A stretch of DNA of 64,000 bases from Fibrobacteria bacterium. Its GTDB lineage: Bacteria > Fibrobacterota > Fibrobacteria > UBA11236. The position numbers and the translations under genes are program-made. The notes under the pieces are model-generated. The model made no database searches, was not told where the DNA came from, and worked only from the letters and a program-made list of their open reading frames with translations. Location of the stretch: NCBI GenBank assembly GCA_039917895.1, contig JBDSIO010000219.1:78-64077 (forward strand). The letters are read 5' to 3'. Below, in pieces: positions 7,669 to 39,312 of this stretch; position 1 is the first letter of the stretch, and each line of letters opens with the position of its first letter.

Positions 7669-7850
7669 TTTAATTATTCTGCGTATCGGTTCCCGATTTC
7701 CAGTCCTAAAGATATCAAGCGGAGCCTTGCCGATTCAGCAACGGAAAATTGCCATATTGCCGAAGCCGATTGCCTTTTTGGCAGCGCGCGGCTTCCGTTT
7801 TTTTGGGTTGAATATTTGTCACAACAAACCCCATCGCGGCGAAAGCGGGA

Positions 7851-15017: not shown

Positions 15018-15211
15018 TTCCGTCAAGAAATTCCGCTGGAGCTGCCATTGTGGCGCAGCGCCGTGAGGGTCCGCGGGACCGCATGGCGAATCCGCGCACT
15101 GCGGAGCCGTCGGCTGCCGAAACGGTTCTCCCTCCCGACCGGATCGGGATTTGCTTCAGGTTTCCCCTGTGCCACCCTCACAACAGACGTCGCACAGAAA
15201 GGGATTTTAAC

Positions 15212-15631: not shown

Positions 15632-15664
15632 ACCGGGCCCTTTCGAACGATCCGCCAGGCCTAT

Positions 15665-16165: not shown

Positions 16166-16339
16166 GAGCTTCCCCCATTCCGGATTCCTCTAAGGGTCCG
16201 TTAAGTACGCGGGCTGTACCCGCAAGATCCGGGCCTCGACACATTGTCACGATTAATGCAATTCAGACAGCGTCGCTTCCCCGTATTCCGTGAAACCATG
16301 AAAATCTGAACCCGTTCGCGGATTGGAAAATCCGCCAAG

Positions 16340-17614
16340 GTGGTACACGCTTTGCTTCCTTGCGTTCCCATGGTTCCATCAGAGGGGAAAATCCCTGTAC
16401 TCGAGGCGGAACAACGCATTCAGGCGAGTCTGCGCATTCTACCCGCCGAGTCGGTGGAAATGACCGCTTGCGCGGGACGGATCCTACGGGAGCCGATAGC
16501 GGCCGACCGCGCCTATCCGCCAATGGACAAGATATGCATGGACGGGATCGCCATCCGGTTCGGCGACTATTCGGCGGGGACGCGGGAGTTCCGCGTCATC
16601 GGAATCGGCAAGGCGGGTGAGGAGCCGATTCGATCGGCCGGCGACGGCACCTGTTCCGAGGTGATGACGGGAGCACCCTGTCCTTCCGGATACGATTGCG
16701 TGATCCCGATCGAACAGGTCGTTTATTTGGGCGACTTCGCGAACGTGTTACCTGAGCGGTCCGTCAGGCCGGGTCAGAACGTGCACCGGATGGGAAGCGA
16801 TTGCGCAGCCGGCCGGTTTTTGTTGTCCGAAGGCCAGCGCCTCAACGCCGCAAGAATCGCGATCGCGGCATCAGTGGGCATGACAAGCCTCAAAGTGACC
16901 CGCCGTCCCGTGATCCGCGTAATCGCGACCGGCGACGAAATCGTTGGCCCGGGAAAGGGTCCGATGCCTTGGCAGCTAAGGCAATCCAACGCCCCGGCGC
17001 TCGCAGCCATGATGTCAGGCTTTGCGAGCGTGGAAACGCAATGGGTGCGAGACGATCCCGACGCGCTTCGCGAAAGCATCGGCTGGGGGCTGGAAGGTAC
17101 GGATTTGTTCGTCCTTTCCGGGGGGGTCTCCGCGGGGAAATTCGATTTCGTACCCGCCGCGCTCGAAAGCGCCGGAATCACGCGAAGTTTCCACAAAGCG
17201 GCGATCCGTCCCGGCAAACCGCTTTGGTTCGGCCTGACTTCGGACGGCCGGCCGGTATTCGGACTGCCCGGCAATCCCGTGTCCTTCCTGATTTGCCTGC
17301 GCAGGTTCGTATTGCCGTTGTTGCATGGGATGTCCGGCGCCGCGGCCCCTCTCCGCGCCTCCCGCATCCGTCTGGGTTCCGAAGTAAACGCGCTTCCGGG
17401 CCAAACCCACTTCCTACCCGTTCAATGCATGCGGGCGAATGACGGAGGGTCTATCGCCGTACCTTGCCCGACCAACGGCTCCGGTGACTTTTGCGGCCTG
17501 GGGAATTCGGACGGCTTCGTGGAAATCGAACCAGCCCCGCTTACCGGCTCCCGTCCGCACCGCTCACCTATCGTCGCAGGGGACTCCGTCCCATGGTTTC
17601 CCTGGGAAGGTTGA
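16340..17614 (+). CDS. moeA: Molybdopterin molybdotransferase MoeA
   Basis: MoeA N-terminal, MoCF-binding (GGVSAGKFDF) and C-terminal domains are present. Its stop overlaps the moaA ATG. Confidence 0.8.
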   Translation: MVHALLPCVPMVPSEGKIPVLEAEQRIQASLRILPAESVEMTACAGRILREPIAADRAYPPMDKICMDGIAIRFGDYSAGTREFRVIGIGKAGEEPIRSAGDGTCSEVMTGAPCPSGYDCVIPIEQVVYLGDFANVLPERSVRPGQNVHRMGSDCAAGRFLLSEGQRLNAARIAIAASVGMTSLKVTRRPVIRVIATGDEIVGPGKGPMPWQLRQSNAPALAAMMSGFASVETQWVRDDPDALRESIGWGLEGTDLFVLSGGVSAGKFDFVPAALESAGITRSFHKAAIRPGKPLWFGLTSDGRPVFGLPGNPVSFLICLRRFVLPLLHGMSGAAAPLRASRIRLGSEVNALPGQTHFLPVQCMRANDGGSIAVPCPTNGSGDFCGLGNSDGFVEIEPAPLTGSRPHRSPIVAGDSVPWFPWEG

Positions 17615-18571
17615 ATGCGCTTCCGAACGGTTCCGCGCCTTATTGACAAGCATGGCAGGGTGATGCGCAAACTCCGGGTTTCCCTCACCGATGCCTGCAA
17701 CTACCAATGCTTTTACTGTATGCCGGCCCGTCCCGTGTTCACGCGGAAGGGATTACTGCTTGAACCCAGCGAATACCGCGCCCTGTGCGGATCCCTGGTC
17801 GCCGCCGGAATCGAGGAGCTAAGGATCACCGGCGGCGAGCCAACGGTGCGTCCCGGGTTCGAAAGCATCCTGGAGAACCTGGGCGGGTTGCCGGTACGCC
17901 GCAAGGGTATCACCAGCAATGGGCACCTGTTGGCGGGGCATCTCCGATTTCTCAAAGCAAACGGCTGGAATAGCATCAATATCAGCCTCGACAGCCTGGA
18001 TCCGGGCCGGTTCGCGAGCATTACCGGGGGTGGGGATTTCCGCACCGTGATGGCTTGCATCGAAAAGGCGGCGGGACTGGGTTTGCGCGTCAAGGTGAAC
18101 AGCGTCGTGATGAGAGGTGTGAATGATGACGAGTTGGAGGATTTCACGGAATGGGGGGCGCGCTCCGGCATTGAAGTCCGTTTCCTGGAATACATGCGCA
18201 TCGGACCGGATCTCGCCCGTCACCCTCAGCGCTTCATGAGCGCGGAAGAAATGATTTCCGCCCTCCGCCGCAAATACCATCTGGAACCCTTGCGGGCGGC
18301 GCCGGATTCGACGGCGCTCCTCTTTGGCACGGATTCCGGCGCAAAGTTGGGATTCATCGCTTCGGAATCCAAGGCCTTCTGCGCGACGTGTTCCCGCCTC
18401 AGGCTTTCAGCCACCGGCGTCCTGCGCGCCTGCGTGATGAACCCGGAAGGGATTTCCATCCGCCATGCTTCGCCGGATGATCTGCCCGGAATCTTCGCGA
18501 AGGTGATGGGAATGAAACCGCTGATCCACCCCGATTCCAATCCGCTGCCGATGCATGCCCTGGGAGGATGA
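17615..18571 (+). CDS. moaA: GTP 3',8-cyclase MoaA (radical SAM)
   Basis: LRVSLTDACNYQCFYCMP radical SAM motif and a C-terminal MoaA Fe-S Cys triad (CATCSRLRLSATGVLRAC). Confidence 0.85.
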   Translation: MRFRTVPRLIDKHGRVMRKLRVSLTDACNYQCFYCMPARPVFTRKGLLLEPSEYRALCGSLVAAGIEELRITGGEPTVRPGFESILENLGGLPVRRKGITSNGHLLAGHLRFLKANGWNSINISLDSLDPGRFASITGGGDFRTVMACIEKAAGLGLRVKVNSVVMRGVNDDELEDFTEWGARSGIEVRFLEYMRIGPDLARHPQRFMSAEEMISALRRKYHLEPLRAAPDSTALLFGTDSGAKLGFIASESKAFCATCSRLRLSATGVLRACVMNPEGISIRHASPDDLPGIFAKVMGMKPLIHPDSNPLPMHALGG

Positions 18572-18660
18572 GAATGGCTGGCGGTTTGGGCATCCGGCGG
18601 TAGAGCCGGTCGCCGATAACGACTACGAACGCGGCGTAATGCCGCCAAGAAAGGAACGGA

Positions 18661-18921
18661 ATGATTGAGACATCGGTGGGATTGGATGTTACCGTGGAGT
18701 ACTTCGCGCTGTTCCGCTCGTGCGCCAGGAAAAGCTTGGAGAAAATCCATCTCGATGAAAGCGCGCCGGCCGCTTTGTATGATGCGTTGCGCGCGCGATA
18801 CCGGTTTCCCTTGGCTAAGGAACTCGTCCACCTGGTTGTCAACGACGAGTACTCGCCTTGGGATAAAGCGCTCCAGCCGGGGGATCGGGTCGTGTTCATT
18901 CCGCCCGTTTCGGGAGGTTGA
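18661..18921 (+). CDS. moaD: Molybdopterin synthase sulfur-carrier subunit MoaD
   Basis: 86 aa ending in Gly-Gly (PPVSGG). It overlaps the moaE start. Confidence 0.7.
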   Translation: MIETSVGLDVTVEYFALFRSCARKSLEKIHLDESAPAALYDALRARYRFPLAKELVHLVVNDEYSPWDKALQPGDRVVFIPPVSGG

Positions 18922-19442
18922 TCATGTTCCGTCTTACGGAAGCACCCATCGAAATCCGCGCCATGCGCGATACCTTGTCGAATCCCGCTTGCGGCGGCTT
19001 CGTCTCTTTCGAGGGCCGGGTACGCAACCACCATCAGGGTTCGGAAGTCGTTAAACTGGAATATGAAGCCTATCCCAAGCTGGCCATCTCCGAAGGGAAC
19101 CGGATCCTGGCGGCTCTCAAGCAGAAGTACGGACTTTCCGGCATCCTCTGCGTCCACCGCACAGGTGAATTGAGCGTAGGCGAGATTGCGGTCTGGATCG
19201 GGGCCATCGGCGTACACCGACGGGAATGCTTCGCGGCCGTCTCCGAGGCCATGTCGCTCATCAAAGAGTCGGTGCCCATTTGGAAGCACGAGTGGTACGC
19301 CAATGGGGACGATGAGTGGGTGCGCTGCAGCCACGAGCATGAGGAAGCCCCGGCGGACCAGGTCATTCGTCACGGACGGCCTCCGTCCGGTCCGCACCCG
19401 GTTGCTACGATAATGAAGGAGGACGGGCGACGCCGCTACTGA
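18918..19442 (+). CDS. moaE: Molybdopterin synthase catalytic subunit MoaE
   Basis: MoaE fold signature region (FEGRVRNHHQG...LEYEAYPKLA...IWKHEWY). Confidence 0.8.
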   Translation: MIMFRLTEAPIEIRAMRDTLSNPACGGFVSFEGRVRNHHQGSEVVKLEYEAYPKLAISEGNRILAALKQKYGLSGILCVHRTGELSVGEIAVWIGAIGVHRRECFAAVSEAMSLIKESVPIWKHEWYANGDDEWVRCSHEHEEAPADQVIRHGRPPSGPHPVATIMKEDGRRRY

Positions 19443-19608
19443 TCCCGGCATTCTTCCTTACGGCCCTCTTGTATGCCGGGGCCGGGTTCGCCGGAGGTTC
19501 GACTTATCTGGCCCTGCTGGTGTTGCTGGGATGGAAGACCGGAGGCATCGCCTCCATGGCTCTGATTTGCAATTTGCTGGTCGCCGGCCAAGGTCAAACC
19601 GCGTGCTG
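19442..19608 (+). pseudogene. Remnant of a TauE/SafE-family permease N-terminus (no start codon, truncated after ~55 codons)
   Basis: The reading frame IPAFFLTALLYAGAGFAGGSTYLALLVLLGW... resembles the first TM/Gly-rich motif of TauE-family transporters. It has no ATG and ends at a TGA at 19606. Confidence 0.25.
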
Positions 19609-19714
19609 AGATATTGGACCGCGGCATTGGTGCTGGCCGCGGCAGCGCGTATTCTCTGGCAATCCCGTTAACTCGAAGGTTACCAAGCTTCCGGAAGTCC
19701 GCGCCCCGCGGACG

Positions 19715-20405
19715 CTACTTGGCGCAGTCCGCTCCCAACGCGCAGTTCATGGCCTCGTCCTTCAGGGATTCGCCATCCACCCAATCGGCGGGGACGACTT
19801 GCAGGTTCATGCGCGCGCACTCCCGCGCGACCAGCTCCGCGACCCAGGCGAATACCGGCCCGTAGAACAGGCTGGCCTCCACGCCCGGACGCCGCGCGAT
19901 GGCACCGACGAAGCGGCCTAGATGCTCCCTCAGGAATTTACGTAAAGCGTCCCCCACGATTTCCGCGCCTTCGGCATCGTTCGCCTCGGTCAGGTGCACG
20001 TCCTTCATGAGCATCAGGGAGTAGAACTCCAGTTCGATGCCCACATGATCCAGCATTTCCATGCCGTCGAGGGACGCATCCAACTCGAATCCGAAGGCCC
20101 GGTAGAACCCGGCGATATCCGACAGCTCGGTACCCTTGGCCATGGCGCGGCGGCGGTCGTATTCGGTTTCATAGATGGGATTGGAATCCTTGCCGTTGTC
20201 GAAGATGGAGATGTATTCGGATTGCAAATCCCGGATCACGTCCTTGGAGGTCCATTTCAGGATCAGGGCCCGCAACGCATCGGGCATCCGGATGTCGCCA
20301 TCGTCCAGGAGAACCGGGACGTTTCCGGAAATGAAGTCCATGGGATAGGAGGTCAGGATCGAAGCCAGTACGAAGGGGGCGGGTCTGCTATCCATGTCAG
20401 TCATG
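19715..20405 (-). CDS. TorD/NarJ-family redox-enzyme maturation chaperone (NxrD-like)
   Basis: TorD-like helical protein. The internal Met start (MTDMDSRPAPF...) at 20405 is placed just downstream of the gamma subunit stop. The longer track ORF start (20572) would overlap the gamma gene by about 175 nt. Confidence 0.65.
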
Positions 20406-21257
20406 CTCGATTTTAAAGGGTTTCCAGGCCATGGTGATGGATTTGCGGGAGCCGACTTCGTCCGCGCCGCCTTGCCAGACCGCCAAGCCGAAAGAGGATC
20501 CTTCGCCCTCCACCAGCACCGATCCCCCAGGGCAGTTGATGGCGCGGGCGACGACCACGGTCCATTCCCCATCCTTCCAGGCCCCGCGGCCGGAGGAGTT
20601 GCCTCCGGCGGTCACCACGGAAGTCCCGAAGCCCTCGGCCATCATTTCGTCGACCGCATGCTTGCGGCTCGCCTGGGGATTTCCCGAGGCGACGGCCGGG
20701 GAGAAGGTTTCCGTTTCGGCTTGGGTGGCGGGTTTCAAACGGCCGCGATCGGGGAATTCGTTGGGATAGATATCCGATTGCAGGTTCGGATAAATCTCCT
20801 TTACCGTTTTCTTCCCAACCAGCTCGTCATGCTGGTATTGCGCCCGCCAATGGAAGATATGCACGGGATTCTTGGGGCCGCCCATGAAGATGGGCGGAGG
20901 CACGGCATTGTCCAGCACCGGGAATTCCAAGGCGACGGCGTCGGAAAACTCGGCCAGACGGCCCGCCTCCGAGGCTTCCCTATCGGCCCAGCGCAGCCGG
21001 TAAGCGATGTACTTGCCGTCGTGGACGATCTGGACCTTCACCTTTTCCGTTTCCGCCTTGTCCGGCTTGGGCTTGGCTATCATCTGCGCCATCAGCGCCA
21101 CCTCCGCCTCGGGAACGCCTTTCCAGTAATCCGCATCGACCTGCGGGGGCTTGGAAAGGTCCGCGGCGATTTTATGGACCTGGTAATCAGCGGCCCCGGC
21201 CAGGGAAAAGCAGAGCGTCGCGAAGGAAATCGAAGCATATGTCGTCAGCGGATTCAT
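20397..21257 (-). CDS. Gamma subunit of a type II DMSO-reductase-family enzyme (EB_dh heme-b domain; NxrC/EbdC/DdhC-like), soluble and periplasmic
   Basis: Sec signal peptide (ASISFATLCFSLAGAA), no TM anchor, and an EB_dh-type domain. It lies immediately downstream of the beta subunit. Confidence 0.65.
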   Translation of the reverse strand: MNPLTTYASISFATLCFSLAGAADYQVHKIAADLSKPPQVDADYWKGVPEAEVALMAQMIAKPKPDKAETEKVKVQIVHDGKYIAYRLRWADREASEAGRLAEFSDAVALEFPVLDNAVPPPIFMGGPKNPVHIFHWRAQYQHDELVGKKTVKEIYPNLQSDIYPNEFPDRGRLKPATQAETETFSPAVASGNPQASRKHAVDEMMAEGFGTSVVTAGGNSSGRGAWKDGEWTVVVARAINCPGGSVLVEGEGSSFGLAVWQGGADEVGSRKSITMAWKPFKIEHD

Positions 21258-21266
21258 CCCGTCTCC

Positions 21267-22397
21267 TCAGGGTGTGTTGTTTCTGGAAACCTTCAGCTTT
21301 TCGTCGAACGCTGCCCTCTCGAAAATCGGCTCCGTGACCGGTACCCGGACGATCTCGTCGCCCTTCTCGTCGAACCCCATGGCAATGCCGTCCTTCACCT
21401 TGAAGCCGTGCATGATGCGATCGGTGCTGCCGATCAGGACCATAAGGCCTTGGGCCACGGGATCGTTCTTAAGGTTCTTGTAGTTCTCGATGGCCTTGTC
21501 GACCTTCGGCCCGAACATCTGAAGCAGGTAGTCCCGGTCCGCATGGATGGGCGGGATGTAATAGATGTTCGGTTCCAGGCCCAGCTGCGGATAATACGGC
21601 AGGGCCAATTCCTTATTGTGGATCAGATAGTCGATGGGATTGTCCTGGCGGATGTTCCACGGCGGGTTCACAAACCCCATCACCCGGATCTTGCCGATGC
21701 AGTTCTGAACGCACATCGGCTGGTAGCCTTTTTCCACGGCCGGATAGCATCCAATGCATTTCTCGCTCGTCCGCGTATGCGTGTTATACATGGATTTCTT
21801 GTAAGGGCAGGCCCGCACGCATTCTCCGTAGCCCTTGCAGCGGCTCTGGTCGATTAGGACGATACCGTCCTCCTCGCGCTTGTAAATGGCCTTGCGCGGG
21901 CAGGAGGCCAAGCAGGCGGGATAGGTGCAATGCGCGCAGGTGCGCGGCAGGTAGAAGAACCACTTGTCGTGAGGCAGGTTGATTTCCTGGCCCGTGGTCA
22001 CGTTGCCCAGGCAATCATCCTCGCCGTTGTTCGGGTACATCCAGTCTTCGTCCTTGGGCGCGAAGTGGGCGACCACCTCGTTGGCGCCGGCCGCTTCGAA
22101 AATCGTCTTGCCGTAGTACGGTTCCTTCGCCTTCCAGGCCTGGGCACCCAGCTTTTCCAGCACGCGGACGTCCCAGGCCAACGGATAGGAGCCGTAGGGC
22201 TTGGTCTCCACGTTGTTCCAGAACATGTACTCCTGGCCCTTGCCGCTGGTCCAGGTGGTCTTGCAGGCCAGCGAACAGGTTTGGCAAGCGATGCACTTGT
22301 TCAAATCGAATATGATGGACCACTGCCGTTTGGGACGGGATTCCGCATAGGGATATTCCATCTCGCGCTGCAAGTGCCAATTCTTCACCTTTGCCAT
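21267..22397 (-). CDS. nxrB: Beta subunit (4 Fe-S clusters) of a NarH/NxrB-type molybdoenzyme
   Basis: CIACQTCSLAC..., CAHCTYPACLASCP, CKGYGECVRACP and CIGCYP motifs. 376 aa, 4 nt downstream of the alpha subunit. Confidence 0.85.
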   Translation of the reverse strand: MAKVKNWHLQREMEYPYAESRPKRQWSIIFDLNKCIACQTCSLACKTTWTSGKGQEYMFWNNVETKPYGSYPLAWDVRVLEKLGAQAWKAKEPYYGKTIFEAAGANEVVAHFAPKDEDWMYPNNGEDDCLGNVTTGQEINLPHDKWFFYLPRTCAHCTYPACLASCPRKAIYKREEDGIVLIDQSRCKGYGECVRACPYKKSMYNTHTRTSEKCIGCYPAVEKGYQPMCVQNCIGKIRVMGFVNPPWNIRQDNPIDYLIHNKELALPYYPQLGLEPNIYYIPPIHADRDYLLQMFGPKVDKAIENYKNLKNDPVAQGLMVLIGSTDRIMHGFKVKDGIAMGFDEKGDEIVRVPVTEPIFERAAFDEKLKVSRNNTP

Positions 22398-22400
22398 GCC

Positions 22401-25400
22401 CTATCCCTTCTTCTTCATGTAATGGCCCTTCAAGTATTCCTTCATGGCCTGGTTCTCGTAGGTGGGCCGGAAGCCCAGCGCCGCCGGGCGCCAAACTCCC
22501 TGCCCCCCCAAACCGCCCGGTTCGGCCTTGGTGATCTTCACGAAGGATTCGCGCGGCGCCCCGGTGGGGCAATGGATATCCGCCGCGAAACCCTTTTCGA
22601 TGCCTTGCCCGAACATGGTCTTGTGAACCAGGGTCTCGGTCATCTGCGTGGGCCGCAGCCATGCGCGCGTGGCGCTCTGGTGCGATCCGTACCGGTACAT
22701 GGACTGGTAGTTGGTTTCCGGGCTCTTCGCCAGGCCGTCGGGACGCGTCTCGGCCCCCTTCACGCTGCCGAAGGTGGAGCCGTACATGTTATGCCAGGTG
22801 CGCGTCACGCCACGGGGCGTTCCCGGGTAGTATCGCGCGCGCAGCATCAGCCGCGCGACCTTGTATTCCTCCGTGCCCGGCTTATGGCCGCGGAAGGGCC
22901 GATCCTCCGGATCCGCGTCGATCCAGACGTAGTCCCCGTCCTCCACGCCAATGGCCTTGGCGTCCAAAGGGTTGATGTCCACGTAACCTTCCACCACGGA
23001 GGGCATGCGCTTGTCATGGCGGTAGACGTCGCCGAAAGGACCGAACCAGATGGCGTTGATGTCCGTATCCACCGGGGTGGAATGCGCACCGTGCCGGTAC
23101 TTGGGAGTATGGTAGATATGCGTATAGTTCTTGAGCTTGAGCGGGTGCTCGCTCTTTAGCATCTCTTCCGCCGACATCATCACGTTGCGCGCTTGGCGGG
23201 TTTCGGAACTGACGTCCTTTTCGTCGAATCCGTAGTCCTTGGGCGACTTGAAACGCATGGCTGCGTGCTTTTTGCCGACGATGACGTTGGGCTCGTGCGG
23301 GGTGGAATCGACCGGCTCCCGGTAAATAACCATGTTCTCGCCGCCCTCGATGAATTCGACTTCGGGCCGGTAGAACTCGAGTCGCCCGGATTTGGTGTGC
23401 CAGGGTTTTTCCGACTTCGCCTGCTCATACGACGAGATGCGGGGATAGGTGCGGTTGTTCATCAGGGTCGGTATGCCCTGCTTGGCCTTGTCCTCCATGT
23501 CCCCGATGGTGTTTCCCTTCAGCGTCGCGGACGCGCTGACGATGCGTTGCAGATATTCGGAGGTGTTGTTTTCCAAAACGAACTTCCACATGTCGGACAT
23601 GCGCTTATCGCCCGTGACCTTGGCCATGGCATTGGCGACGCCGGCGATGATCTCCACGTCCGCCCGGGTGTCGAATATCCGCTCCATCGGGGTACGCGGG
23701 AATACCTGCAGAAAGGGGTTGGAACAGGATCCGCACATGTCCGGGTGCTTGAATTCGGCCCAGGAATCGCAGGCGAAGACCAGGTCGGAGTATTCGCAGG
23801 AACCGGTCCACCACCAGTCCGAATAGGCGATGAACTCCAGCTTCGGCAGGGTGTTGTTGACCACGTCGTAGTGCCATTTGATGTTGCCGATCACGGAGTT
23901 GGAATTGTTCAGCCACATGGCCTTGGTCGGCGCCGGCATATGGCCATCGCCGGTGAACATCTTGTCTCCCACCTTCAAGGGGCGATCCCCGTAGTTGAAA
24001 TAGTGGAGCGATTCGTAATGGCTGTATTTCTTGACCGTGGGCTTTCCGCCCGCTTCCAGCTGGAGGTTGAAGGGGTCCTCGGCCGCATAGACCGGCTCCC
24101 CGCCGATCAGGGCAGTACGGTAATTGCCCGCGTAGCTGCCTACGTTGCCACCGGGAAAGCCGACATTGCGGGTGAGCGCCGCCACCATGAAAATGGCGCG
24201 GTCCTTGAGATCGGCATTGAAGAACTGGTTGGGACCCATGCCGCATGCGAAGATGGTTTTTTCCTTGTTCTTCGCGATCTCCTTCGCCAGCTTGATGATG
24301 CCCGTGGCCGGGCACCCGGTGATTTGCGAGACCAGCGCCGGCGTCATGTTGGCGTCGAGGTATTCCTTGGTGAGGCTGTATACCGTCCGGACCTCGACCT
24401 CGCTTCCGTCGATGAGCTTGACGCGCGCCCGGTGCTTCAACTCCACGGAAGCTTTGAGCGCCTTGGCATGGTCGCCGTAGTCGTCCCGGGTTACGGGAAC
24501 GTAATTCTTCGTCTTCTTGTCGAAGACGACGAAGGGCTTGAAGTCGCCGCGCATGGATTCCGGCACGAACTGGGCGGCCTGCTCCATGCCGGGCAGCGGC
24601 TTTTCGCCTTTCTGCATGAACTTGACCGAGGTCAATTCCGGATCCTTATATCCAGCGATGAACTCGTCCGGCCGCAACGGCTGCAACGTGTCCAGTCGGA
24701 CCAGGAAAGGGAAGTCGGTCTTGTTCTCTACGAAGTCCTTGTCGTAGAGGTTTCCGGCCATGATGACCTGGCACAATCCCAAGGCGAACGCCGGATCCGT
24801 GCCGGGGCGGATGATCAGGACGTCGTTGGCCTTGGACGCCGTGGCGCTGTACTCCACGGTGACCGCAACCGTTTTGGTCCCCTTCAGCCGCGCTTCGGTC
24901 ATCCAATGCGAATCCGGCATCTTGGTCGTGATCCAATTCATGCCCCACACGATGAGGAGCTTCGAATGCTCCACGGTGAAAAGGTCGAAATCATTGGTTT
25001 GCTGTCCCGTGACCATGGGATGCCCGGGCGGCAGATCCGTATGCCACGAATAGGAGTCCCAACCCCGGCCCCCGGTGGCCTTGTCCGGACCGACGCCGCG
25101 GATCTTGGAATCCAGAAGCGCGAGCATGTTGGCGAATCGGTACAGCCCGAAAATGCGCGTCGCGCCAAGGAAGGCCATGCCGCCGCGGAATTTCAGGGTC
25201 TGCACGCCCGCGCCTTCCATGGAGTGGATCATGGCAGGATCGTAATTTTGCGCCTTGAGGTACTCCTCCCCCTGCTTGCCGGAATAGGCCGTTGCGATGT
25301 TGGTCATGGTCTTGGCCGCGTACTCATAAGCCTGGTCCCAGGGAAGCCGAAGCCATTTATCCTTGCCGCGTTGGAAATATTTCGCATCCGGTTTTCCCGT

Positions 25401-25880
25401 CCCGGCGTCGCGGGGGTAACCGGCGTCGGCCCATTCCTTGAAGCCGCGCCGGATCATGGGCGCTTTGACGCGCCGGTCTCCGTAGAACCTGCGAACCAGG
25501 GCCAGGCCCTTTTGGCAGATGCGCGGATCCCAGCGGTGGGAACTCTGATTGCCGTACAGATCCACGGCCTTGCCGTATCCGTAGCTAGGACCGATGCGTT
25601 GCAGTACACCGTTCTTGACCTTGGCCTTGAGCAGGCAATTGTGGGTATCGTTGGGCGCGCACAGGAAGACGAATTCCGAATCATGCTCGAAAATGTTGCG
25701 ATAGGTCTTCTCCCAATCCCGATCGGGATATGCGGCCAGGGGATTTTCGATTGCGGTTGGCTTGAAATAGCGCAGCGGGGTCGCATCCGCCCATTTGGCC
25801 GCGGCCAGCGAGCCGCCGGCGATGCCCATGCCCTTGATGAAGCTGCGGCGACTGACGCCTTTGTTCTTATCCTCGTTCAT
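22401..25880 (-). CDS. nxrA: Alpha subunit of a Tat-exported NarG/NxrA-like Mo-bisPGD enzyme (periplasmic nitrite oxidoreductase / periplasmic Nar type)
   Basis: 1159 aa. Twin-arginine signal [19 protein letters not shown]. The N-terminal Fe-S region reads C-x3-D-x3-C-x39-C (an Asp variant). The large size and periplasmic targeting fit NxrA of Nitrospira/anammox/Nitrospina rather than cytoplasmic NarG. The direction of catalysis cannot be read from the sequence. Confidence 0.8.
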
Positions 25881-26227
25881 GCTTTTTCCTCCAAATGCGT
25901 ATTGAGCCGGGCGGGTTCGCCGGTAAGGATGGAATAGACGCGGTCCGCGGGCCAGGTTTCCGAGCGATCGACAATCAGTCCTCCGGATGGATCCGAACGG
26001 ATGGCGAAGTACTGGTCAGCAATCCCGCCTGCAAGTCCAGGGCGGTAACTGCGCGCCCTTAGGCCCTCGGGATGCGACTCCACCATGACGGTTCCGGATC
26101 CGGCGAGCCGTTCTTCTCCCAGCGGATAATGTGAGATGCGTCCGATGTCCACGGGTCCGGCAGGAGCGGCCTGCGGCGACGCGTGGAATGCACCGAACAG
26201 AAAATCCCTGCGGTCGATGGGTTTCAT
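25877..26227 (-). CDS. Small hypothetical protein with a twin-arginine-like N-terminus, translationally coupled to nxrA
   Basis: 116 aa starting MKPIDRRDFLFGAF..., with no Cys. Its stop overlaps the nxrA start (ATGA). Codon usage is normal. Confidence 0.4.
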   Translation of the reverse strand: MKPIDRRDFLFGAFHASPQAAPAGPVDIGRISHYPLGEERLAGSGTVMVESHPEGLRARSYRPGLAGGIADQYFAIRSDPSGGLIVDRSETWPADRVYSILTGEPARLNTHLEEKA

Positions 26228-26230
26228 GCT

Positions 26231-27064
26231 TCAGCCACCTGTGGTCCCCAATACAGCCTGGGGGGTCACGTCCTTGACGGCCAGACCCGGGAATTTCTCC
26301 TTGATCATCCCGTCGAATTTATGAGCCAGCAGCCCTCCGTTTCCGCACAGCGGATCCGTGGACATGCCGAATTCGAAAAACAGCGTTCCTTCGCGAAAGC
26401 CCTTCAAGACCAGGGCGATTCCCGTGGTGCGATGAAAATAGGCCGCGATTTCGAACAGCTCCATCGCCATATGCTCCGGGACCGGGCCCCAGGCCGGGGA
26501 ATCGGCGCCCGGCGCCGCAGCTTCGGTGTAGAACACGTCCAGGCAATTGGCATCGCCATGGCGCGCGCTCGCATGTCTCACGAAACGTTCCTTTTCCCCA
26601 AGGCCCATGACCAAACCATCCATGGCTTCGCGCCAATAGTCGCATGCATACGAACCGACAGACCGGCAGAATCCGCACTCGTTGCGGGTGAGTACGCATG
26701 CGCCGGCGCGTTCGCTCCAATCTCCTTTGGCACATGGGATTCCAGAGACCTCCAACAGCCCGCGGAAGTCCCCGGTCTCGAAAGTCAATCCGAGCCTTTT
26801 GGCGAAGCCCAGCGCAAGTTTCCTGCTGTTATCGAAAACCCCCCGCAGAACGGCGTTTTGCGCTCCGGTCGACGAGGAACGGGTAGCGGCTCCGTCCACG
26901 GCACACACGGCCTCCAGGAGTCGCTTTTCCGAATCGGGATCGGCTGCTTCGGGAATGGATGCCTCAGGGCAACCGGACCTCAGGGCGGAAAGCCGAGCCG
27001 ATTGCCACCGCCGGTTGAAGTCCTCGATCTCGTTTTGCGGAACGATTGGGGGAAATTGCATCAT
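26231..27064 (-). CDS. Cysteine-rich hypothetical protein (putative metal/Fe-S binding); first gene of the nxr operon
   Basis: 278 aa from MMQFPPIV. Cys cluster ...GIPCAKGDWSERAGACVLTRNECGFCRSVGSYACDYW. It ends 3 nt before the small Tat protein gene. I prefer the internal start at 27064 to the track start at 27160 because it shortens an unconserved N-terminus. Confidence 0.4.
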   Translation of the reverse strand: MMQFPPIVPQNEIEDFNRRWQSARLSALRSGCPEASIPEAADPDSEKRLLEAVCAVDGAATRSSSTGAQNAVLRGVFDNSRKLALGFAKRLGLTFETGDFRGLLEVSGIPCAKGDWSERAGACVLTRNECGFCRSVGSYACDYWREAMDGLVMGLGEKERFVRHASARHGDANCLDVFYTEAAAPGADSPAWGPVPEHMAMELFEIAAYFHRTTGIALVLKGFREGTLFFEFGMSTDPLCGNGGLLAHKFDGMIKEKFPGLAVKDVTPQAVLGTTGG

Positions 27065-27443
27065 TGTCCTTATCGAGCAATTCCGAGGCCATTGCCATTT
27101 ACGCGCAATCGGGTCCGATTTCGCGGCGCGAACCGTAGTTCGGAATCCCCAATCCGGCATCTTGGCAAAATCGGCAATGAAACCGTGACATTGTTACCGG
27201 TAACCTGTACGTTTCGTTGGGATCGGCGCACAACCTCCAAAGCGGAAAAATCCGTTTGCATACCGCTGCCATCCGCGATTCTGAAAATGGGCGGCCGCCA
27301 TAGGGCGATTGGGAATAAAATCAAAGTTTCGATCTTTTTAATTTAAAACGTTATCGTGATCGCACTATTTGCAATCGACCCGGACGGGGATCCGGCCGGT
27401 CGGAAAGCATTCCCAACAATAACCCCGTTCCGCTGTTGTTGCC

Positions 27444-27457
27444 TTGATCCGGATCAA
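27444..27457. promoter_or_regulatory. Perfect Crp/Fnr-family box TTGATCCGGATCAA
   Basis: TTGAT-N4-ATCAA palindrome in the divergent region between the Crp/Fnr-family regulator gene and the nxr operon. Confidence 0.4.
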
Positions 27458-27595
27458 GTCCGACCCGGCCTTCTTTCGCGTTGCACCGACGGAGCGCTGC
27501 TTTTGGACATAAGCTTCCGGATTGCCAAAATGACCGTAGATAAAGCGGTCCGGGTGGCCTCGGCGCGGCTACCTCTTTTAAGAGAGGAGGTGCCA

Positions 27596-28288
27596 TTGGA
27601 AATCATCAGAAGGATTCTGAATTCCGCACCCCTGTTCGCCGGACTGGGCGCGAGCGGCTGCGGTGAACTCGCGCCTCTGTGCCGCCTGAAGCCGCTGGCG
27701 AAGGATCAGGTTCTGTTCCGGCACGGAGAAAAAAGCCATGCCTTCTTCATCGTGCATTCCGGAGCCATAAATCTCCACCGTCTCGATTCCAAAGGGCGGG
27801 AAATCGTGCTGCGCCTGTTCCACCCTGGCGATTCCCTGGCCGAAGGCACGCTTTGCGGTCTCGCTGAGTATCCCGCCCATGCCAAAGCCGTGGAAGCAGG
27901 CCAGGTCCTGTCCATCGACCGGATCGGCTTCCTCCGCTACATGCAATCGCATCCGGACATGCCCATTCGGATCCTGGATTCAATCGACAAACGGAATCGT
28001 TACTTCATCGAGCAACTGGAAAGGCTTCAGGGACGGGAATCGGGTGACCGCCTGGTCGCCTGGCTGCTGGATAGCGCGCGGCAAGCGCACCCTGCCGGCG
28101 GGCATTCCATTTCCCTGCGACATCCGAAGAAGGTGCTGGCGGCCGAACTCGGCGTCACTCCGGAGACCCTGTCCCGGTCCTTCGCAGATTTGCGGGACAA
28201 GCGGATTATCACCGTGGAAGGCCGCGACATAACCATCACCGATATGGATGCCCTGCGCCGATCCGGCTGCGGCGCCAGGGAAACCTGA
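27596..28288 (+). CDS. Crp/Fnr-family transcriptional regulator (Dnr/NnrR-like; no N-terminal FNR-type Cys cluster)
   Basis: cNMP-binding beta-roll plus a C-terminal HTH (VLAAELGVTPETLSRSF). A TTG start at 27596 is preceded by AGAGGAGGTG. The alternative ATG at 27530 is possible, but the track start at 27356 is not supported. Confidence 0.65.
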   Translation: MEIIRRILNSAPLFAGLGASGCGELAPLCRLKPLAKDQVLFRHGEKSHAFFIVHSGAINLHRLDSKGREIVLRLFHPGDSLAEGTLCGLAEYPAHAKAVEAGQVLSIDRIGFLRYMQSHPDMPIRILDSIDKRNRYFIEQLERLQGRESGDRLVAWLLDSARQAHPAGGHSISLRHPKKVLAAELGVTPETLSRSFADLRDKRIITVEGRDITITDMDALRRSGCGARET

Positions 28289-28312
28289 ATCCGGGTTCCG
28301 CGGGAATTCCCG

Positions 28313-28897
28313 TCAGCCCGATTTGCACCAAAGCGTATCGACATAGCGCTTCGAGCGCGCGAGGATGCGTTCCACCCGCGCCAGACCTTCGGACCCGTGG
28401 CTTGCGTTCCAATCGCTATCCACGCGATGAAACGCCTCGCCCAACAGGTCGAGTTCCGTCGGGCCGAGGATTTCGCGCGCGATGCCGAACACGCAATGGT
28501 TCTCCTTCTGGATATGCGCGCGCAGAAGGCGCGCGTAGGCGTCGCATACCAAGGCGATTTCCTTCCAATCCGGACCGCCCGGCGCAAACGCCGGGTCGAG
28601 CAACGACCCCGCCAGGGAAACCAATTGGCGTCCTTTCACATGCTCCAGCCGCATGGTTCCGGTGGGTCCGCCGATGACCGGCATCCCCCGCATTTCCAGG
28701 GCGGGAAACAGGTATTCTTCTTCCTTGGCATGATGACTAACGTCCGTGAACTCCCTGAGGAACCACAGAATTTCGGTGAGCAGGTCCCGGTCCGAAAAGG
28801 CGCCGACGGAAGCCGCCTCGGCAATGGCCTCGAGTCCGTCCAATACGCATTCCACCTTGCGGTGCTCTTCCTTCAGCATTTCGATTGGATCAGACAC
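28313..28897 (-). CDS. Hemerythrin-domain (HHE cation-binding) protein
   Basis: 194 aa with H/E pairs typical of hemerythrin-like domains (EEHRKVE, HHAKEE, LEHVKGRQ...). It is the last gene of the long minus-strand array. Confidence 0.6.
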   Translation of the reverse strand: MSDPIEMLKEEHRKVECVLDGLEAIAEAASVGAFSDRDLLTEILWFLREFTDVSHHAKEEEYLFPALEMRGMPVIGGPTGTMRLEHVKGRQLVSLAGSLLDPAFAPGGPDWKEIALVCDAYARLLRAHIQKENHCVFGIAREILGPTELDLLGEAFHRVDSDWNASHGSEGLARVERILARSKRYVDTLWCKSG

Positions 28898-28910
28898 GTC
28901 GGTTTTCCCT

Positions 28911-30236
28911 TCAGAAATTGAAGGTGGGCATTACGTAGAGGTTGTATCCCGGCCGGTAATCCTGGTCCGGACCCAAGCCCGCGGCCGCCAGCGCGACGGC
29001 GCCGTCACCGGGTAGAAAGATCCCCCCGCCGAAATGGATGTTCGCCTTGGGATGGATGGTGATCTGGATTTCCAGGTCGGCTTCCTGTCCATAGGGTTCG
29101 TCAATGGCGGCCGGCGCATTCTGAGGGAGAAAGAAATGGTATTGCGGCTTCACCTGGACGCGAGCCGCCCCGGCGGGTCCTCGCACGCAGGCGAAATCGC
29201 CGTCAAGCCGAATGTCCAAGACGCCATAGGCGGGATTAACGACGAAGTAATCCATCCAGCCGAAATAGGCATGGGCAAAATAATAGGAGGCCCGGTAGGC
29301 CGTGGCCCGGTCGTCGGACGGATCGTCGTCACCGCTCATGATGTCCAGTCCCGCATTCACCTTGTGCGCCCCCAACACGGCTCCGGCGCGCAACGCCAAT
29401 TGGAAGGCCGCGCTCGTCAGGTTTCGCCCGGCGGATAGCTCTCCGGTCTGCCAGATGAATTCCTCTTCGTAAACGAACTGTCCCAAGCGGCCGGCCAGCC
29501 GTTCTCCGGCATAGACGAGATCGTAATTGCGTACGCTTAGGCCTCCGTAGCTCCCGGCCAGGCGCGCCTGGTCATAAAACATGAACGCGTCGGCCTGATG
29601 GCCATCCGCGAGTTTGCGGTTGTAGAACAGCCCGGTCAGCAGCAGGTGGTCGTCGACGGCTTTTTCCGCGGAATCGCGCACCAAATAAGCCAGGGCGGTC
29701 AGGTTGTCCGGACCCGCATCGTAGTTGGCCGAAACGCCGTCGAAGGAGCGGGAGGTCGCGCTCCATTCCAACGTACTCAAGAACCGGCCAGACCCGAGCG
29801 AAAGCTTTTGGCGGCCCAGCGCGGCCGTAACGGGACCCTCCTTTAAGGTGGCGTAGCCCTGCAGCAGGTCCATGCCTTTGCTGTTGCCCACCGAGGCCGC
29901 TGCCGGATTGGTCGCGGGCACGGACGGCTCAGACCCCATGTATCGGGAGTCTTGGATTTCCAGGCGGATACCTGTCCGTTCAAAAGGAGCGCCCGAATAG
30001 GCCAGACGCGACCTCAAAAAAGTGTTCAGGAAAGGCTTGTTGGCATCGTCGTCGCGAACAGCCTTCTGATCGAATTCCGTGCGCGTTCGGAGCTGTCCGG
30101 AGAAGCCGAAGGCGGCGGGTGGAGGCGGCGCGAACGGGGACTCCCCAGGGGGCGCGGCGGCAATCGGACCCGCGAAAATCGTCAGCACCGCGGCGATGGC
30201 CGGGGTCCGGATCGGAACAGTCGTAATGGATTTCAT
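28911..30236 (-). CDS. Outer-membrane beta-barrel protein (alginate-export/porin-like)
   Basis: Signal peptide. Amphipathic beta-strand pattern. C-terminal ...YVMPTFNF with a terminal Phe typical of OMPs. Confidence 0.55.
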   Translation of the reverse strand: MKSITTVPIRTPAIAAVLTIFAGPIAAAPPGESPFAPPPPAAFGFSGQLRTRTEFDQKAVRDDDANKPFLNTFLRSRLAYSGAPFERTGIRLEIQDSRYMGSEPSVPATNPAAASVGNSKGMDLLQGYATLKEGPVTAALGRQKLSLGSGRFLSTLEWSATSRSFDGVSANYDAGPDNLTALAYLVRDSAEKAVDDHLLLTGLFYNRKLADGHQADAFMFYDQARLAGSYGGLSVRNYDLVYAGERLAGRLGQFVYEEEFIWQTGELSAGRNLTSAAFQLALRAGAVLGAHKVNAGLDIMSGDDDPSDDRATAYRASYYFAHAYFGWMDYFVVNPAYGVLDIRLDGDFACVRGPAGAARVQVKPQYHFFLPQNAPAAIDEPYGQEADLEIQITIHPKANIHFGGGIFLPGDGAVALAAAGLGPDQDYRPGYNLYVMPTFNF

Positions 30237-30498
30237 TGAATCCTCCCGGAGCGGGACTCAAGCAAGAAACATTCCCGCAGCCCTACCCTTCCAATCCAGG
30301 CATATACCCTTGTTTCCGCGGTGGAAGCCCGGCGGCAAACGCCCCGAATTGCAAAAACGGCGTGGAAGGGGGCGCGGCGCATGCCAACCTGGCACGCGCC
30401 GCCGCGTCGCAACCCTGATACAACCGTTTCCATCCGGCCCGGGGATCCAAACCGGCCCGGGATGGGTAACTCCATGGATACCCATGGGGGCTCCGCAT

Positions 30499-33400
30499 TC
30501 ATCCATGGCCGTGGAAATTCCCGGAAGCGGACCAATGGGTCATCGCCTGATCGATGTCCGCGGCATCCACCCGCGTCCTACCCTCGCCCTTGGCGCGGCG
30601 TTCGATTTCCTTCATTACCATGGGACGGATGAAGTCCGGGATGCGGGAAGTGCGGGCCGTGGCCGCTTCGCTCCACTCCAGCTCCGGCGCCATCTTGGCG
30701 GAGCCATCACCCCAGCTCCCGTATTTTCCGTCCATGATCTCCAGATCCACCACGTCCGCTCCTCCCGCGCGCGCCCATTTCTCGACGCGGCAGCGCGTCA
30801 TGGTGCGCATGAAGCCTTCCGGTACCCGTTCCAGCCTTTGCAGGGCTTCGGGTTTCCAGGCCAGGGTCTTGAAAGCGGAAGACTTGGCCTGGGCGCGCTT
30901 TTCCGCGCTCAAGCGGACGAAATGCCCGGTGCCGCAATTGGCGCAGACCGTCGGTTTGGCGCCGTCCAGGATAATGCCGCACAGGTGGCATTCCCAAGGA
31001 GCGATCTCCGAGGCATCGGAGGCTTCCGGCGTTGCGCTTGCCTGGGCGGAAGTTCGGGCCGGATCCGCGGAAGGGGTCGCGGCATGCGGGTTGGCGCCTT
31101 GGCCATGGGCATGCGGATTGACGCCATGGGCGTGGATATGACCATGCGCCCCGGGGTCTCCTTGGCCCGATCCCGTCATGCTTGCATGCATCTTCTCCCG
31201 GGCCTTGCCCAGCCCCGCTTCCGCCACCTCCAAGGTGATTTCCTTCGTTCCGGAGTTCAGGGCGTGTTCCTCCACCATGTTTTTCGCGGCCTTGCGCATG
31301 AATCCATCCGGCACCCGTTCCAGGCGCTTGACGGCATCTTCCGTCCAGGCCGGTCCTCCGAAGGCGTCGGAGGATATCGCCCCGGGCGCCGCTTCGGCGG
31401 CGGATACGGGGGCTGCGGGAGCAAGATCCGCGGTAGTGGGAACGGCGGTTGGCGCAGCGCCGATGCCGGCGGCGCGCAATTCGGCCTCCACCATCTCCAG
31501 GGTCACGGCCGTGATACGTTGGGTCAATGCCCGTTTTTCCAGGCGGTTGCGGATCTGCGCCGTCACCGTCGCATCCCCGGACTTTTCCAACAGGGCCAGC
31601 GCGGATTTCTCCCACATCAATTGCCGATCCCCCAGAGTTTCCAAGGACTGCCCTTCGCTGACGATGGCGCTTTCCAGCAGCTTGAACATATGCCCGCCCA
31701 TGCCGCAGATAGGGCAGGACTGGGGCCGGGATCCATGATGGACGTGGCCGCAGGCCTGGCATTTGAAGCTCAAGGCGATCTTGTCGTGGGAATCGCGCTC
31801 CTTGCCCTCGTCCGTGTCCACGATGCCCATGCGGGCCAGCGCAGCGGGAGGCAGCAGGGTTTTCAGGGCCGCGTTCAGGATCGACTCCGTGACCACGGTA
31901 TGGCCTTCGGCCACGCAATAGTTCTGGATCGCTTTCATCGCCATATTCTGCGCCATGGCCGGCACCCGTTGCATGCGGGCCTTGGCCTCGGTGGTCCAAC
32001 TCACGGTCTCCTCGGCCTGGAATTCCACCGGAGGCTTGGCCTTGGAATCCACCACCAATATGTTGCAGGGCGCCAGGCGGCACAGGTTCTCGGTGTTGCC
32101 GCCGATGTCCATGTCCTCGTCGCTATGGAAGCCGATACGGCCCACCACCAGCAGCCAGGGCGGCTCAGCCTTGACGAGCTGCAGGATCTTTTCGAAGGGT
32201 TTGCCATCCAACAAACGGATCTCGATGGCTACGCCCGCCTCTTCGGCCAGCCGCTTGGCGATGTTCAGGTAGGACTGGTAGATCTTGGCCAGCCCCGAGT
32301 CGATGATGTCTTCATGTAGCTTCTCCTGCTCTTCGAACTTGAAGACCTTACGCGCCTTTTCGGTGAGGGTCTTGTTCAGGCTTTTGAACATGGCATAATG
32401 GAAATAGGGGTCGAAGGCGGATACCGCCAGTACTTTCTTGTCCAATGTCTTCGCGAGCCGCATGGCCCGCTGCAGGCCGCCCCAGCTTCGGATGCTGCCG
32501 TCCAGGCAGACTATGATGGTGTCGGAGACGTTCTCTTCCACGGACATGCGCGTAAGCAGGACATCGCGGCGGACGCGGCGCAGCATGCGCTCGGCGACGG
32601 TGCCCAGTTGGGAATTGCCCACGCGGCCGACGCCGTGCGCGCCCAGGGCCACGAGATCGTAATCGTTGGCCGCGATGTCCTCGGCCATGGCCTTCCAATT
32701 CTTGCCTTCCAGGCTCACGGCGGCGAACTCCAGGTTATCGGTCTTGCAAGCGCCGGACATGGCCTCCAAATACGAGTCCGTGATCAGCTCCAGCCCTTTG
32801 GTGATCAGGCTGTCGTGGATCTTGCGCTGGCGGTTAAGTTCCTTCTCCTTCTGGAACTCCTCCGGAAGTCCGCCTTCCATGGCGCGGAAACGGTTGTCGT
32901 GCATCTTAGCCGCATACACGTGGCTGCCGATCATGCGGGCGCCTTCGCGCTTGCCGATCAGCATGGCCGTGCGCATGGCCTCGTTGGAAGGGACGGAACT
33001 GTCCAGGCCCACGTAAATGCGCGAGTATTTCCAGTCTACCGCCTTGGGCGCGGCTTCCCCATCGGGATGGGAGCCGGGCGCCTGGAAGGAGGGAACCGTT
33101 GCAGGGACGGCCTCAGCGGCCTCGGCAGCTATGGCGGTAACGGTGGCCGGGGCGGCCGCGGCGGCTATTGCAGACGGGGCGGAAGGGGCGGTTGCCGCAG
33201 CCGCCTCTAGGGTCGCGGCAGTTGCGGTCCCGGCGTCCTTCGGCCGCTCCAAAACCTCGCGGGCCTCCTTCATCAGTTCCATGGTGATGCGCGTGAACCC
33301 GCGCCCCTTGGCGTATTTTTCGATCTGCTCGGTGATGAACTGGCGGATCATGCCCGGGGCCCGGTTGATGGATTCAATGGCCTCGGGCTCCCATTCCATA

Positions 33401-37394: not shown

Positions 37395-37402
37395 ATCCGC
37401 GC

Positions 37403-39153: not shown

Positions 39154-39312
39154 ATTTCCTGGTGTTTATTGCGGAACCGGGAAGCTTCGGTTTAAGGATG
39201 GTTGGGCTCATAAGCTTCAATCTATCCGCGGCCGTTGCTTCGCGGATTACGCGAAAAATGCCAGCTTGGCATGCATTCCGGCCCCATTTTGGTCCTTATG
39301 GCACGCATTGGG

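Follow-up and report, generated by a model that had tools for sequence, protein, structure and literature searches.

We analysed a 64 kb stretch of DNA from a Fibrobacteria bacterium (contig JBDSIO010000219.1; hereafter the window) that carries on its minus strand, from 27064 to 19715, six open reading frames (ORFs) arranged head-to-tail. They encode the three subunits of a molybdoenzyme related to nitrite oxidoreductase (NXR), a chaperone and two leader proteins. An earlier note on this DNA had proposed these features and their coordinates, and all of them were located:

26231-27064, minus strand: leader gene 1, Cys-rich protein of about 277 aa, predicted to be cytoplasmic
25877-26227, minus strand: leader gene 2, small protein of 116 aa with RRDFL near its N-terminus
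22401-25880, minus strand: alpha (NxrA-like), catalytic subunit for molybdenum bis-pyranopterin guanine dinucleotide (Mo-bisPGD), 1159 aa, with a twin-arginine translocation (Tat) signal and an Asp-type first iron-sulphur (Fe-S) site (FS0)
21267-22397, minus strand: beta (NxrB-like), four Fe-S clusters, 376 aa, without signal peptide, Fer4_11 at 3.5e-30
20397-21257, minus strand: gamma (NxrC-like), soluble haem-b EB_dh protein, 286 aa, with a leader of the general secretory (Sec) type, EB_dh at E=1e-27
19715-20404, minus strand: delta, TorD/NarJ-family chaperone, 229 aa from ATG 20404

Because neighbouring genes are separated by gaps of 3 to 9 nt or else overlap (the stop codon of leader gene 2 overlaps the start of alpha as ATGA, and the chaperone's ATG at 20404 overlaps the stop codon of gamma), we regard the six genes as one operon. 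The longest ORF for the chaperone begins at 20572 and encodes 285 aa; since it would overlap gamma by 176 nt, we prefer the shorter form and take ATG 20404 as the likely start. The Cys-rich gene starts near 27061-27064, and a public gene call for a 100% identical protein gives 276 aa. No operon protein contains a 19-residue window above 1.33 on the Kyte-Doolittle scale, so the operon encodes no transmembrane segment and hence no NarI-like anchor. The other ORF of 1159 aa in the window (46263-49742) was considered as a second alpha copy and rejected: it encodes a B12-dependent ribonucleotide reductase.

Subunits and phylogenetic position of the enzyme

In a search of solved structures, alpha matched NXR-A of Kuenenia stuttgartiensis (7B04_B) over residues 9-1156 with E=1.8e-277, by far its best solved match; PcrA (1.9e-47), E. 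coli NarG (about 1e-37 to 6e-39, confined to segments) and EbdA (6.6e-29) trail well behind. Identity to the Kuenenia protein (KsNxrA, the A subunit of KsNXR) is 39% over 955 residues and lies at 37-40% across all 80 homologues considered here; these, like all counts given below out of 80 loci, come from the best 80 of at least 574 matching stretches. Pfam and NCBIfam recognise a Molybdopterin domain in alpha. [quoted passage not shown]

The N-terminus of alpha carries SRRSFIK, then an uncharged stretch and AKWADA, and the TAT_signal_seq model (TIGR01409) scores 17.1 bits, above its cut-off of 16.7, in keeping with the Tat signal and the length of about 1160 aa previously claimed. The RR motif recurs in 72 of the 80 homologues. 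The proposed FS0 pattern, C-x3-D-x3-C-x39-C, was found exactly, as C74-APN-D78-THN-C82-x39-C122, with C-x3-D-x3-C present in all 77 readable homologues. In an alignment that spans the FS0 region, C74, D78, C82 and C122 fall on C67, D71, C75 and C115 of KsNXR-A, the crystallographic FS0 ligands given in the report of that structure (PMC8387239). The Asp variant that the earlier note ascribed to anammox NxrA is thus on record, and Asp-type FS0 is an already documented feature of NXR-type enzymes. The same alignment places N77 of the CAPND motif on the substrate-facing Asn70 of KsNXR-A. D282 lies in SWHTD, and the Kuenenia counterpart reads WHGD; on the strength of these matching WH(T/G)D motifs we take D282 as the equivalent of the Mo-ligand Asp275.

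For the partner subunits, too, Kuenenia NXR is by far the best solved match. Beta matches 7B04_A at E=1.3e-113 and has 16 Cys in four groups (positions 35/38/41/45, 154/157/162/166, 187/193/197 and 214/217/229/233), with a Tyr where NarH carries the Trp of its 3Fe-4S cluster; by analogy, it would be exported with alpha as a Tat hitch-hiker. Gamma matches 7B04_C at E=1.5e-23, begins with a Sec-like leader, MNPLTTYASISFATLCFSLAGAAD, and presents one Met together with K272 in alignment with the haem ligands Met155 and Lys305 of KsNXR-C. Its EB_dh match and the lack of a transmembrane segment, in gamma as in the other operon proteins, bear out the earlier description of a soluble EB_dh subunit and no NarI. 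The chaperone is recognised by PF02613 (Nitrate_red_del, 3.1e-15) and by TIGR03482, the type II DMSO reductase chaperone model (1.6e-16).

Relatives of alpha are numerous. A word-indexed database search returned 2996 proteins with E no higher than 1e-50, of which the top 120 are 68-94% identical to alpha; those with names are called 'molybdopterin-dependent oxidoreductase' or 'nitrate reductase / nitrite oxidoreductase alpha' and come from metagenome-assembled genomes (MAGs) of Bdellovibrio, Oligoflexia, Myxococcota and Planctomycetota. The at least 574 matching stretches were found in species-representative genomes, and the best 80 are MAGs throughout, with labels that include 'Fibrobacteria' (93% and 87% identity), Pseudobdellovibrionaceae, Oligoflexia, many Myxococcota, Sericytochromatia/Blackallbacteria, Acidobacteriota and Thermoanaerobaculia. 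Among representatives clustered at 50% identity, FS0 is Asp-type in proteins from Gaiellaceae (53% identity to alpha), SAR202/Chloroflexi (46%), Tectomicrobia (43%) and a Kuenenia-like cluster (42%); Halorussus, Thermincola and Obscuribacterales proteins (33-36%) all have Cys at the Asp position, and a haloarchaeal relative that we recovered reads CHPNCTQSC at FS0.

In a neighbour-joining tree of alpha (1122 columns, 200 bootstraps), the Asp-type sequences, KsNxrA included, form a superclade with 100% bootstrap support that stands apart from the outgroups. Within it, Kuenenia, P0195 and Tectomicrobia group together (100%), and the 80 loci, Gaiellaceae and SAR202 form a second group (95%) that is sister to the Kuenenia-type one. 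The phylogenetic check that the earlier note had proposed thus places alpha inside the Asp-type NXR superclade and not with NarG. For comparison, the Kuenenia structure paper gives the identity of Kuenenia NXR-A to its Nitrospira/Nitrospina counterparts as about 60%, and to those of Nitrotoga/Hydrogenobaculum as about 40% (PMC8387239).

Taken together, these observations support the view that the locus encodes a soluble, periplasm-facing three-subunit molybdoenzyme of the NXR structural type, and not NarGHI: from its sequence, the enzyme has a Tat motif, a Cys/Asp-type FS0 and no NarI. Where the earlier note spoke of a periplasm-facing NXR/pNar clade, structures and tree sustain the NXR-type part; the pNar-type part falls away, because FS0 is not His-type and PcrA is a distant relative. 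Nor is it supported that archaeal pNarG shares the Asp variant, as the note had supposed: the published account of Haloferax pNarG gives the FS0 residues as His110/Cys114/Cys118/Cys153 in a protein that is PcrA-like, at 45% identity (PMC8301774). Since FS0 of haloarchaeal pNarG is His-type, we call the present enzyme NXR-type rather than pNar-type. The enzyme type itself is already known, and the alpha clade to which it belongs is large and sister to the anammox-type group.

Two leader genes ahead of alpha

In 65 of the 80 loci, tblastn places the first gene of the operon, which encodes the Cys-rich protein, directly upstream of either the small gene or alpha (25-53% identity); it is missing from an alpha subclade, L073-L080, with 57-60% alpha identity. 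All 69 database homologues are unnamed and without a Pfam domain. A Pfam scan of 34 family members at E up to 1 returned noise only, NCBIfam gave no match to the protein, and a profile search of the PDB yielded chance matches only. Across the family, five Cys (C111, C130, C141, C174 and C240 in the 277-aa numbering) are invariant, as are R127, R145, E146, R160, R163, H164 and D176, with a core motif that reads CDYWRE...RH..(x)HGD..C.DV. Fold matches to an AlphaFold2 model (pLDDT 87.6, pTM 0.70) suggest a V4R/H-NOX/Bet3-like domain joined to an Nfu/CDF-CTD-like alpha/beta domain, with the invariant C240 placed in what we take to be the loop where Nfu domains carry CxxC. The protein has neither a signal peptide nor a transmembrane segment. 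On the predicted fold, we infer a cytoplasmic metalloprotein that would act on apo-alpha, in maturation of a metal centre (Fe-S) or of the cofactor. The nitrate sensors DrpA/DrpB of Thermus do not qualify as analogues of the leader genes, since they are located in the periplasm and the membrane and their genes lie downstream of nar. At two loci, L067 and L072, the Cys-rich reading frame continues into the alpha region, free of stop codons for more than 2.5 kb, which probably reflects a frameshift or an artefact of high GC content.

The small protein has a narrower distribution. In about 19 loci an orthologue of 99-142 aa separates the Cys-rich gene from alpha, in MAGs labelled 'Fibrobacteria', Bdellovibrionota/Oligoflexia, Sericytochromatia and, once, Cloacimonadota; most Myxococcota loci leave no room for the gene. 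The orthologues show S-R-R-x-F-F/L at residues 5-10, usually followed by a charged, not hydrophobic, stretch. As its orthologues lack a hydrophobic region, the window protein is not a normal Tat substrate and is probably not exported on its own; of the 'small Tat-like protein' of the earlier note there remains the RR motif, and not a genuine Tat substrate.

Pfam on 19 members and a PDB profile search with the family both returned nothing. When the family profile was aligned to the true Rieske protein of L073, however, hhalign gave a probability of 95.7% (E=9.5e-9) over 40 aligned columns, which stop just before the first cluster-binding motif of that protein. The predicted fold and the N-terminal half of the 116-aa protein are Rieske-like as well. 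The window protein contains no Cys, and neither Cys nor His is conserved among its orthologues, so that the Rieske signature CxH...CxxH is absent. The most fitting description is a Rieske domain stripped of its cluster loops and membrane anchor in which the RRDFL motif has been kept, that is, a Rieske relic.

Where might such a relic have come from? In the sister subclade L073-L076 (57-60% alpha identity), a respiratory membrane module replaces the Cys-rich gene before alpha. L073 has a ferredoxin, a true Rieske protein (Tat anchor ISRRDFLGLASLGTAILSGLAVIAGIF, motifs CTHLGC and CPCHGS) and a cytochrome b at 5420-7686; L074 has a multihaem cytochrome c (5520-8016), and L076 a cytochrome b C-terminal protein together with a multihaem cytochrome c (5553-7986). 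The relic may have descended from the Rieske/cytochrome b module that still precedes alpha in this subclade.

As for function, one could speculate that the relic's RRDFL is bound by the TorD-like chaperone or by the Tat receptor. A hint in this direction comes from three Blackallbacteria/Sericytochromatia loci (L023, L024 and L029), where alpha carries NRLDFLK followed by a lipobox-like GVSGC, and the small protein carries SRSGFLKK: the second Arg has been lost jointly from alpha and small protein, albeit within a single lineage.

The main alternative explanation for the leader genes would make the Cys-rich protein a sensor, of a small molecule or of redox state, by which the adjacent Crp/Fnr-family regulator is modulated, and would see in the Rieske relic a remnant without function. 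Ligand sensing is the classic task of V4R and H-NOX domains (DmpR, PoxR, NO sensors), a Crp/Fnr gene adjoins the operon in the window and in L081, and the relic is absent from most Myxococcota loci. Yet the Cys-rich protein has no DNA-binding or signalling output domain, and its gene comes first in the structural operon in those same 65 loci, whether or not a regulator is nearby, while the relic's conserved residues and the ATGA overlap with alpha argue for selection. We therefore consider a sensor and a remnant rather doubtful, and favour conserved accessory proteins of the enzyme.

Regulation, neighbourhood and direction of catalysis

The following features of the window lie outside the operon:

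27530-28288, plus strand: Crp/Fnr-family regulator (ORF from 27356, likely ATG 27530; cNMP_binding 2.3e-17, HTH_Crp_2 7.3e-17)
27444-27457: perfect FNR/CRP-type palindrome TTGATCCGGATCAA (TTGAT-N4-ATCAA) in the divergent intergenic region
16340-17614, plus strand: moeA, convergent with the operon
17615-18571, plus strand: moaA, convergent with the operon
18661-18921, plus strand: moaD, convergent with the operon
18918-19442, plus strand: moaE, convergent with the operon
15665-16165, minus strand: PF09655 'conserved nitrate reductase-associated protein', adjoining moeA
28911-30236, minus strand: Alginate_exp-family outer-membrane beta-barrel (PF13372, 1.6e-29)
39313-40845, minus strand: dihaem cytochrome c fused to EB_dh ('alternative NxrC'-like), two CxxCH, EB_dh 1.1e-11
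42466-44520, minus strand: cytochrome c fused to a bd-like (CydA-like) membrane protein, Cyt_bd_oxida_I 1.2e-20, one CxxCH, at least 9 transmembrane segments
60984-63025, plus strand: NOR-like haem-copper oxidase of 442 aa and a 238-aa subunit with two CxxCH (the usual NorC is monohaem)

The regulator gene is divergent from the operon across a 465-nt spacer, which holds the only perfect FNR/CRP-type box in the window. Of 62 loci, 13 have FNR boxes with one mismatch or none in the 350 nt upstream of the Cys-rich gene, where the background rate of the loci themselves predicts about 1.7; 8 of the boxes are perfect, in Sericytochromatia and Myxococcota. A scan for sigma-70 promoters and terminators gave counts not above those in shuffled controls. 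Neither in the long leader nor near the moa genes was a molybdenum cofactor (Moco) riboswitch or other known RNA found, with no Rfam match at E up to 1 over 15000-30500.

The adjacent Moco genes of the earlier note (moeA, moaA, moaD, moaE) are present at 16340-19442. In about 40 of the 80 loci moaA follows the chaperone, and full Moco gene sets lie after the operon in L081 and before it in L082. The window further contains nosZ, nosD, nosL, NnrS, the B12-dependent ribonucleotide reductase, a ScdA/YtfE-like protein and the cbb3 oxidase genes ccoNO, ccoP and ccoG. The earlier note had reported nosZ together with a cytochrome c-dependent nitric oxide reductase (cNOR); nosZ is there, and so is a NOR-like oxidase, although its dihaem partner suggests that this 442-aa protein may not be a canonical cNOR. 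Related loci additionally carry a mod-like ABC transporter, a NIT-domain chemoreceptor, Rrf2, ScdA, NrdD and a monohaem cytochrome c after the chaperone. Homologues of the Alginate_exp barrel occur near the operon in five unrelated MAGs (L035, L039, L065, L074 and L084), a loose association that would fit an anion porin; the barrel may supply the periplasmic enzyme.

Both fusion proteins belong to a minus-strand cluster (36282-44520) with several c-type cytochromes, 9 to 17 kb from the operon. The dihaem fusion is a candidate electron partner of the enzyme, and the bd-like fusion, 15 kb away, a candidate membrane module. In Kuenenia, Nitrospira and Nitrospina, NXR is reported to be accompanied by an alternative NxrC, a bd-like oxidase and cytochromes c (PMC3578206), and the cluster, which resembles this set by architecture only, could connect the soluble enzyme with the membrane. 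Between the barrel and the cluster lies an odd pair of minus-strand genes. In the 1217-aa product of one (30499-34152), five PCP_red (BchB C-terminal) repeats are combined with two Usp domains and a rubredoxin-like motif; the other (34204-35493) encodes a radical SAM/SPASM protein that ends in PCP_red.

How, then, might the enzyme be assembled and used? Homology to KsNXR and established knowledge of Tat-exported molybdoenzymes suggest the following picture. In the cytoplasm, alpha would receive Mo-bisPGD and its Asp/3Cys-ligated [4Fe-4S] cluster with the help of the TorD-like chaperone, the leader genes providing conserved cytoplasmic accessories. Tat would export alpha with the signal-less beta riding along, and the haem-b gamma, exported by Sec, would join alpha/beta in the periplasm. 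Electrons would pass from haem b through FS4 to FS1 and on via FS0 to Mo, being exchanged with c-type cytochromes rather than with a NarI-type quinol oxidase, and the Crp/Fnr-family regulator would switch the enzyme on at low oxygen. Because FNR-type control coincides with denitrification and anaerobic neighbours, respiratory nitrate reduction in a heterotrophic denitrifier is the most likely role, to which we assign a probability of roughly 60%. The enzyme type is reversible: KsNXR is reported to reduce nitrate at 1.5 umol/min/mg and to oxidise nitrite at 61 nmol/min/mg (PMC8387239), and accounts of the wider periplasmic clade include the characterised periplasmic nitrate reductase of Hydrogenobacter thermophilus (PMC6050957) and the nitrate reducers Thermogutta and Methanoperedens (PMC10732223).

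A number of points weigh against this reading. Published surveys of such genes hold that direction cannot be read from sequence (PMC9306079; PMC10732223), and the earlier note rightly left both nitrate reduction and nitrite oxidation open. Among the genes of the window, none was recognised as a nitrite reductase. The alternative NxrC, bd-like and cytochrome c set is typical of nitrite oxidisers and, together with cbb3, makes a nitrite-to-oxygen route conceivable. The perfect box is nearer to the regulator gene, whose likely start it precedes by about 80 nt, than to the operon, whose first gene it precedes by 386 nt. The tree was built by a distance method, with a Kuenenia sequence that was rebuilt from a printed alignment and lacks its last 200 or so residues, and contains no labelled Nitrospira, Nitrospina or Nitrotoga references. 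Finally, the accessory roles suggested for the leader genes rest on predicted folds, that of the Rieske relic being a model of modest confidence (pLDDT 67).

These points leave some room for an enzyme that acts as an NXR in vivo, or reversibly, passing nitrite electrons via haem b and c-type cytochromes to cbb3 and serving a heterotroph for energy or nitrite detoxification. Alpha shares a superclade with proven NXRs, KsNXR is bidirectional, and the window, with its alternative-NxrC-like protein, bd-like membrane protein, many cytochromes c and cbb3, resembles nitrite oxidisers; several papers raise the possibility for nxr-like genes of non-nitrifiers. However, related loci show an excess of FNR-type boxes upstream of the operon, the neighbours are denitrification genes, with an anaerobic ribonucleotide reductase in related loci, and no carbon-fixation genes were seen in the window. 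The hosts, moreover, are MAGs labelled Bdellovibrionota, Myxococcota and similar, lineages taken to be heterotrophs. Oxidation in vivo therefore strikes us as unlikely, if worth keeping in mind.

More elaborate still would be an oxidative or two-way NXR in heterotrophs (the Fibrobacteria MAG, Bdellovibrionota, Myxococcota, Sericytochromatia and Acidobacteriota) that is equipped with a nitrifier-like toolkit and whose leader proteins are dedicated assembly or export-proofreading factors, amounting to a new maturation route for Asp-type NXR; this combination is a long shot. [quoted passage not shown] KsNXR has been assayed with chlorate, selenate, DMSO and other substrates (PMC8387239).

Whether the enzyme is, as we favour, a respiratory nitrate reductase matters beyond this locus. 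Metagenome studies routinely score NXR-type genes as 'nitrite oxidation potential', and here is an alpha clade that is carried by heterotrophs, among denitrification genes and behind FNR-type boxes, which bears on how nitrification and denitrification are read from such data. If its members truly reduce nitrate, many surveys mis-assign a denitrification gene to nitrification; if they truly oxidise nitrite, nitrification extends to several new phyla. The two conserved helper genes, in turn, offer leads on how an Fe-S cluster with an Asp ligand, along with the Mo cofactor, is put in place ahead of export by Tat.

Comparison with known systems

The closest characterised relative is Kuenenia NXR-ABC (7B04), with which the window enzyme shares three soluble subunits, a Tat alpha, Cys/Asp/Cys/Cys ligation at FS0, the putative Mo-ligand Asp, the substrate Asn, a NarH-like beta, an EB_dh haem-b gamma with Met/Lys and a TorD-like chaperone in the cluster. 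The differences are, in part, of degree: beta has 376 aa against 410, gamma 286 against 322, and alpha is 39% identical. Others are of kind. The window has no NXR-T and no sign of tubule formation; the Kuenenia host is an anammox bacterium, whereas the window host would be a heterotrophic denitrifier. In the window, moreover, a V4R-like gene and the Rieske relic lead the operon, and the available portions of the anammox and Nitrospina papers make no mention of such genes.

The periplasmic NXR of Nitrospira and Nitrospina is similar in orientation, in its Tat alpha and hitch-hiking beta, and in having soluble NxrC candidates, with an alternative NxrC, cytochromes c and a bd-like oxidase alongside, as described for these genera (PMC3578206). 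The window clade differs in being a sister lineage, although neither genus is labelled in the tree, and in its FNR-type regulatory context. Beta has a Cys at position 45, and Nitrotoga likewise has Cys where N. defluvii has Asp45, a comparison by residue number.

With E. coli NarGHI the enzyme has in common the chemistry of type II enzymes in the DMSO-reductase family, an Asp as Mo ligand and a NarH-like Fe-S chain; NarG, by contrast, is cytoplasmic, has a His/3Cys FS0 and works with NarI, a membrane dihaem quinol oxidase. Haloarchaeal pNarGH is a Tat-exported, outward-facing nitrate reductase, and export by Tat and an outward orientation are predicted for the window enzyme as well. Its membrane module is of the Rieske/cytochrome b type and resembles the module found in the sister subclade L073-L076. 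The window alpha is set apart by its Cys/Asp FS0 and by the disparity between its PcrA and NXR-A matches (1.9e-47 against 1.8e-277).

The nxr-like genes of non-nitrifier MAGs, among them Myxococcales PRO3 (PMC9306079) and Planctomycetota, form the same kind of gene cluster, and L061 is PRO3 by isolate name. The available parts of these reports treat alpha, beta and gamma, and do not describe upstream genes or FNR boxes. In a limited full-text search, we likewise found no description of a V4R/Nfu-like first gene, of the Rieske relic and its apparent origin, or of FNR-box enrichment. To an enzyme type that is itself familiar, leader gene 1, the relic with its apparent origin and the excess of FNR boxes each add something modest yet concrete.

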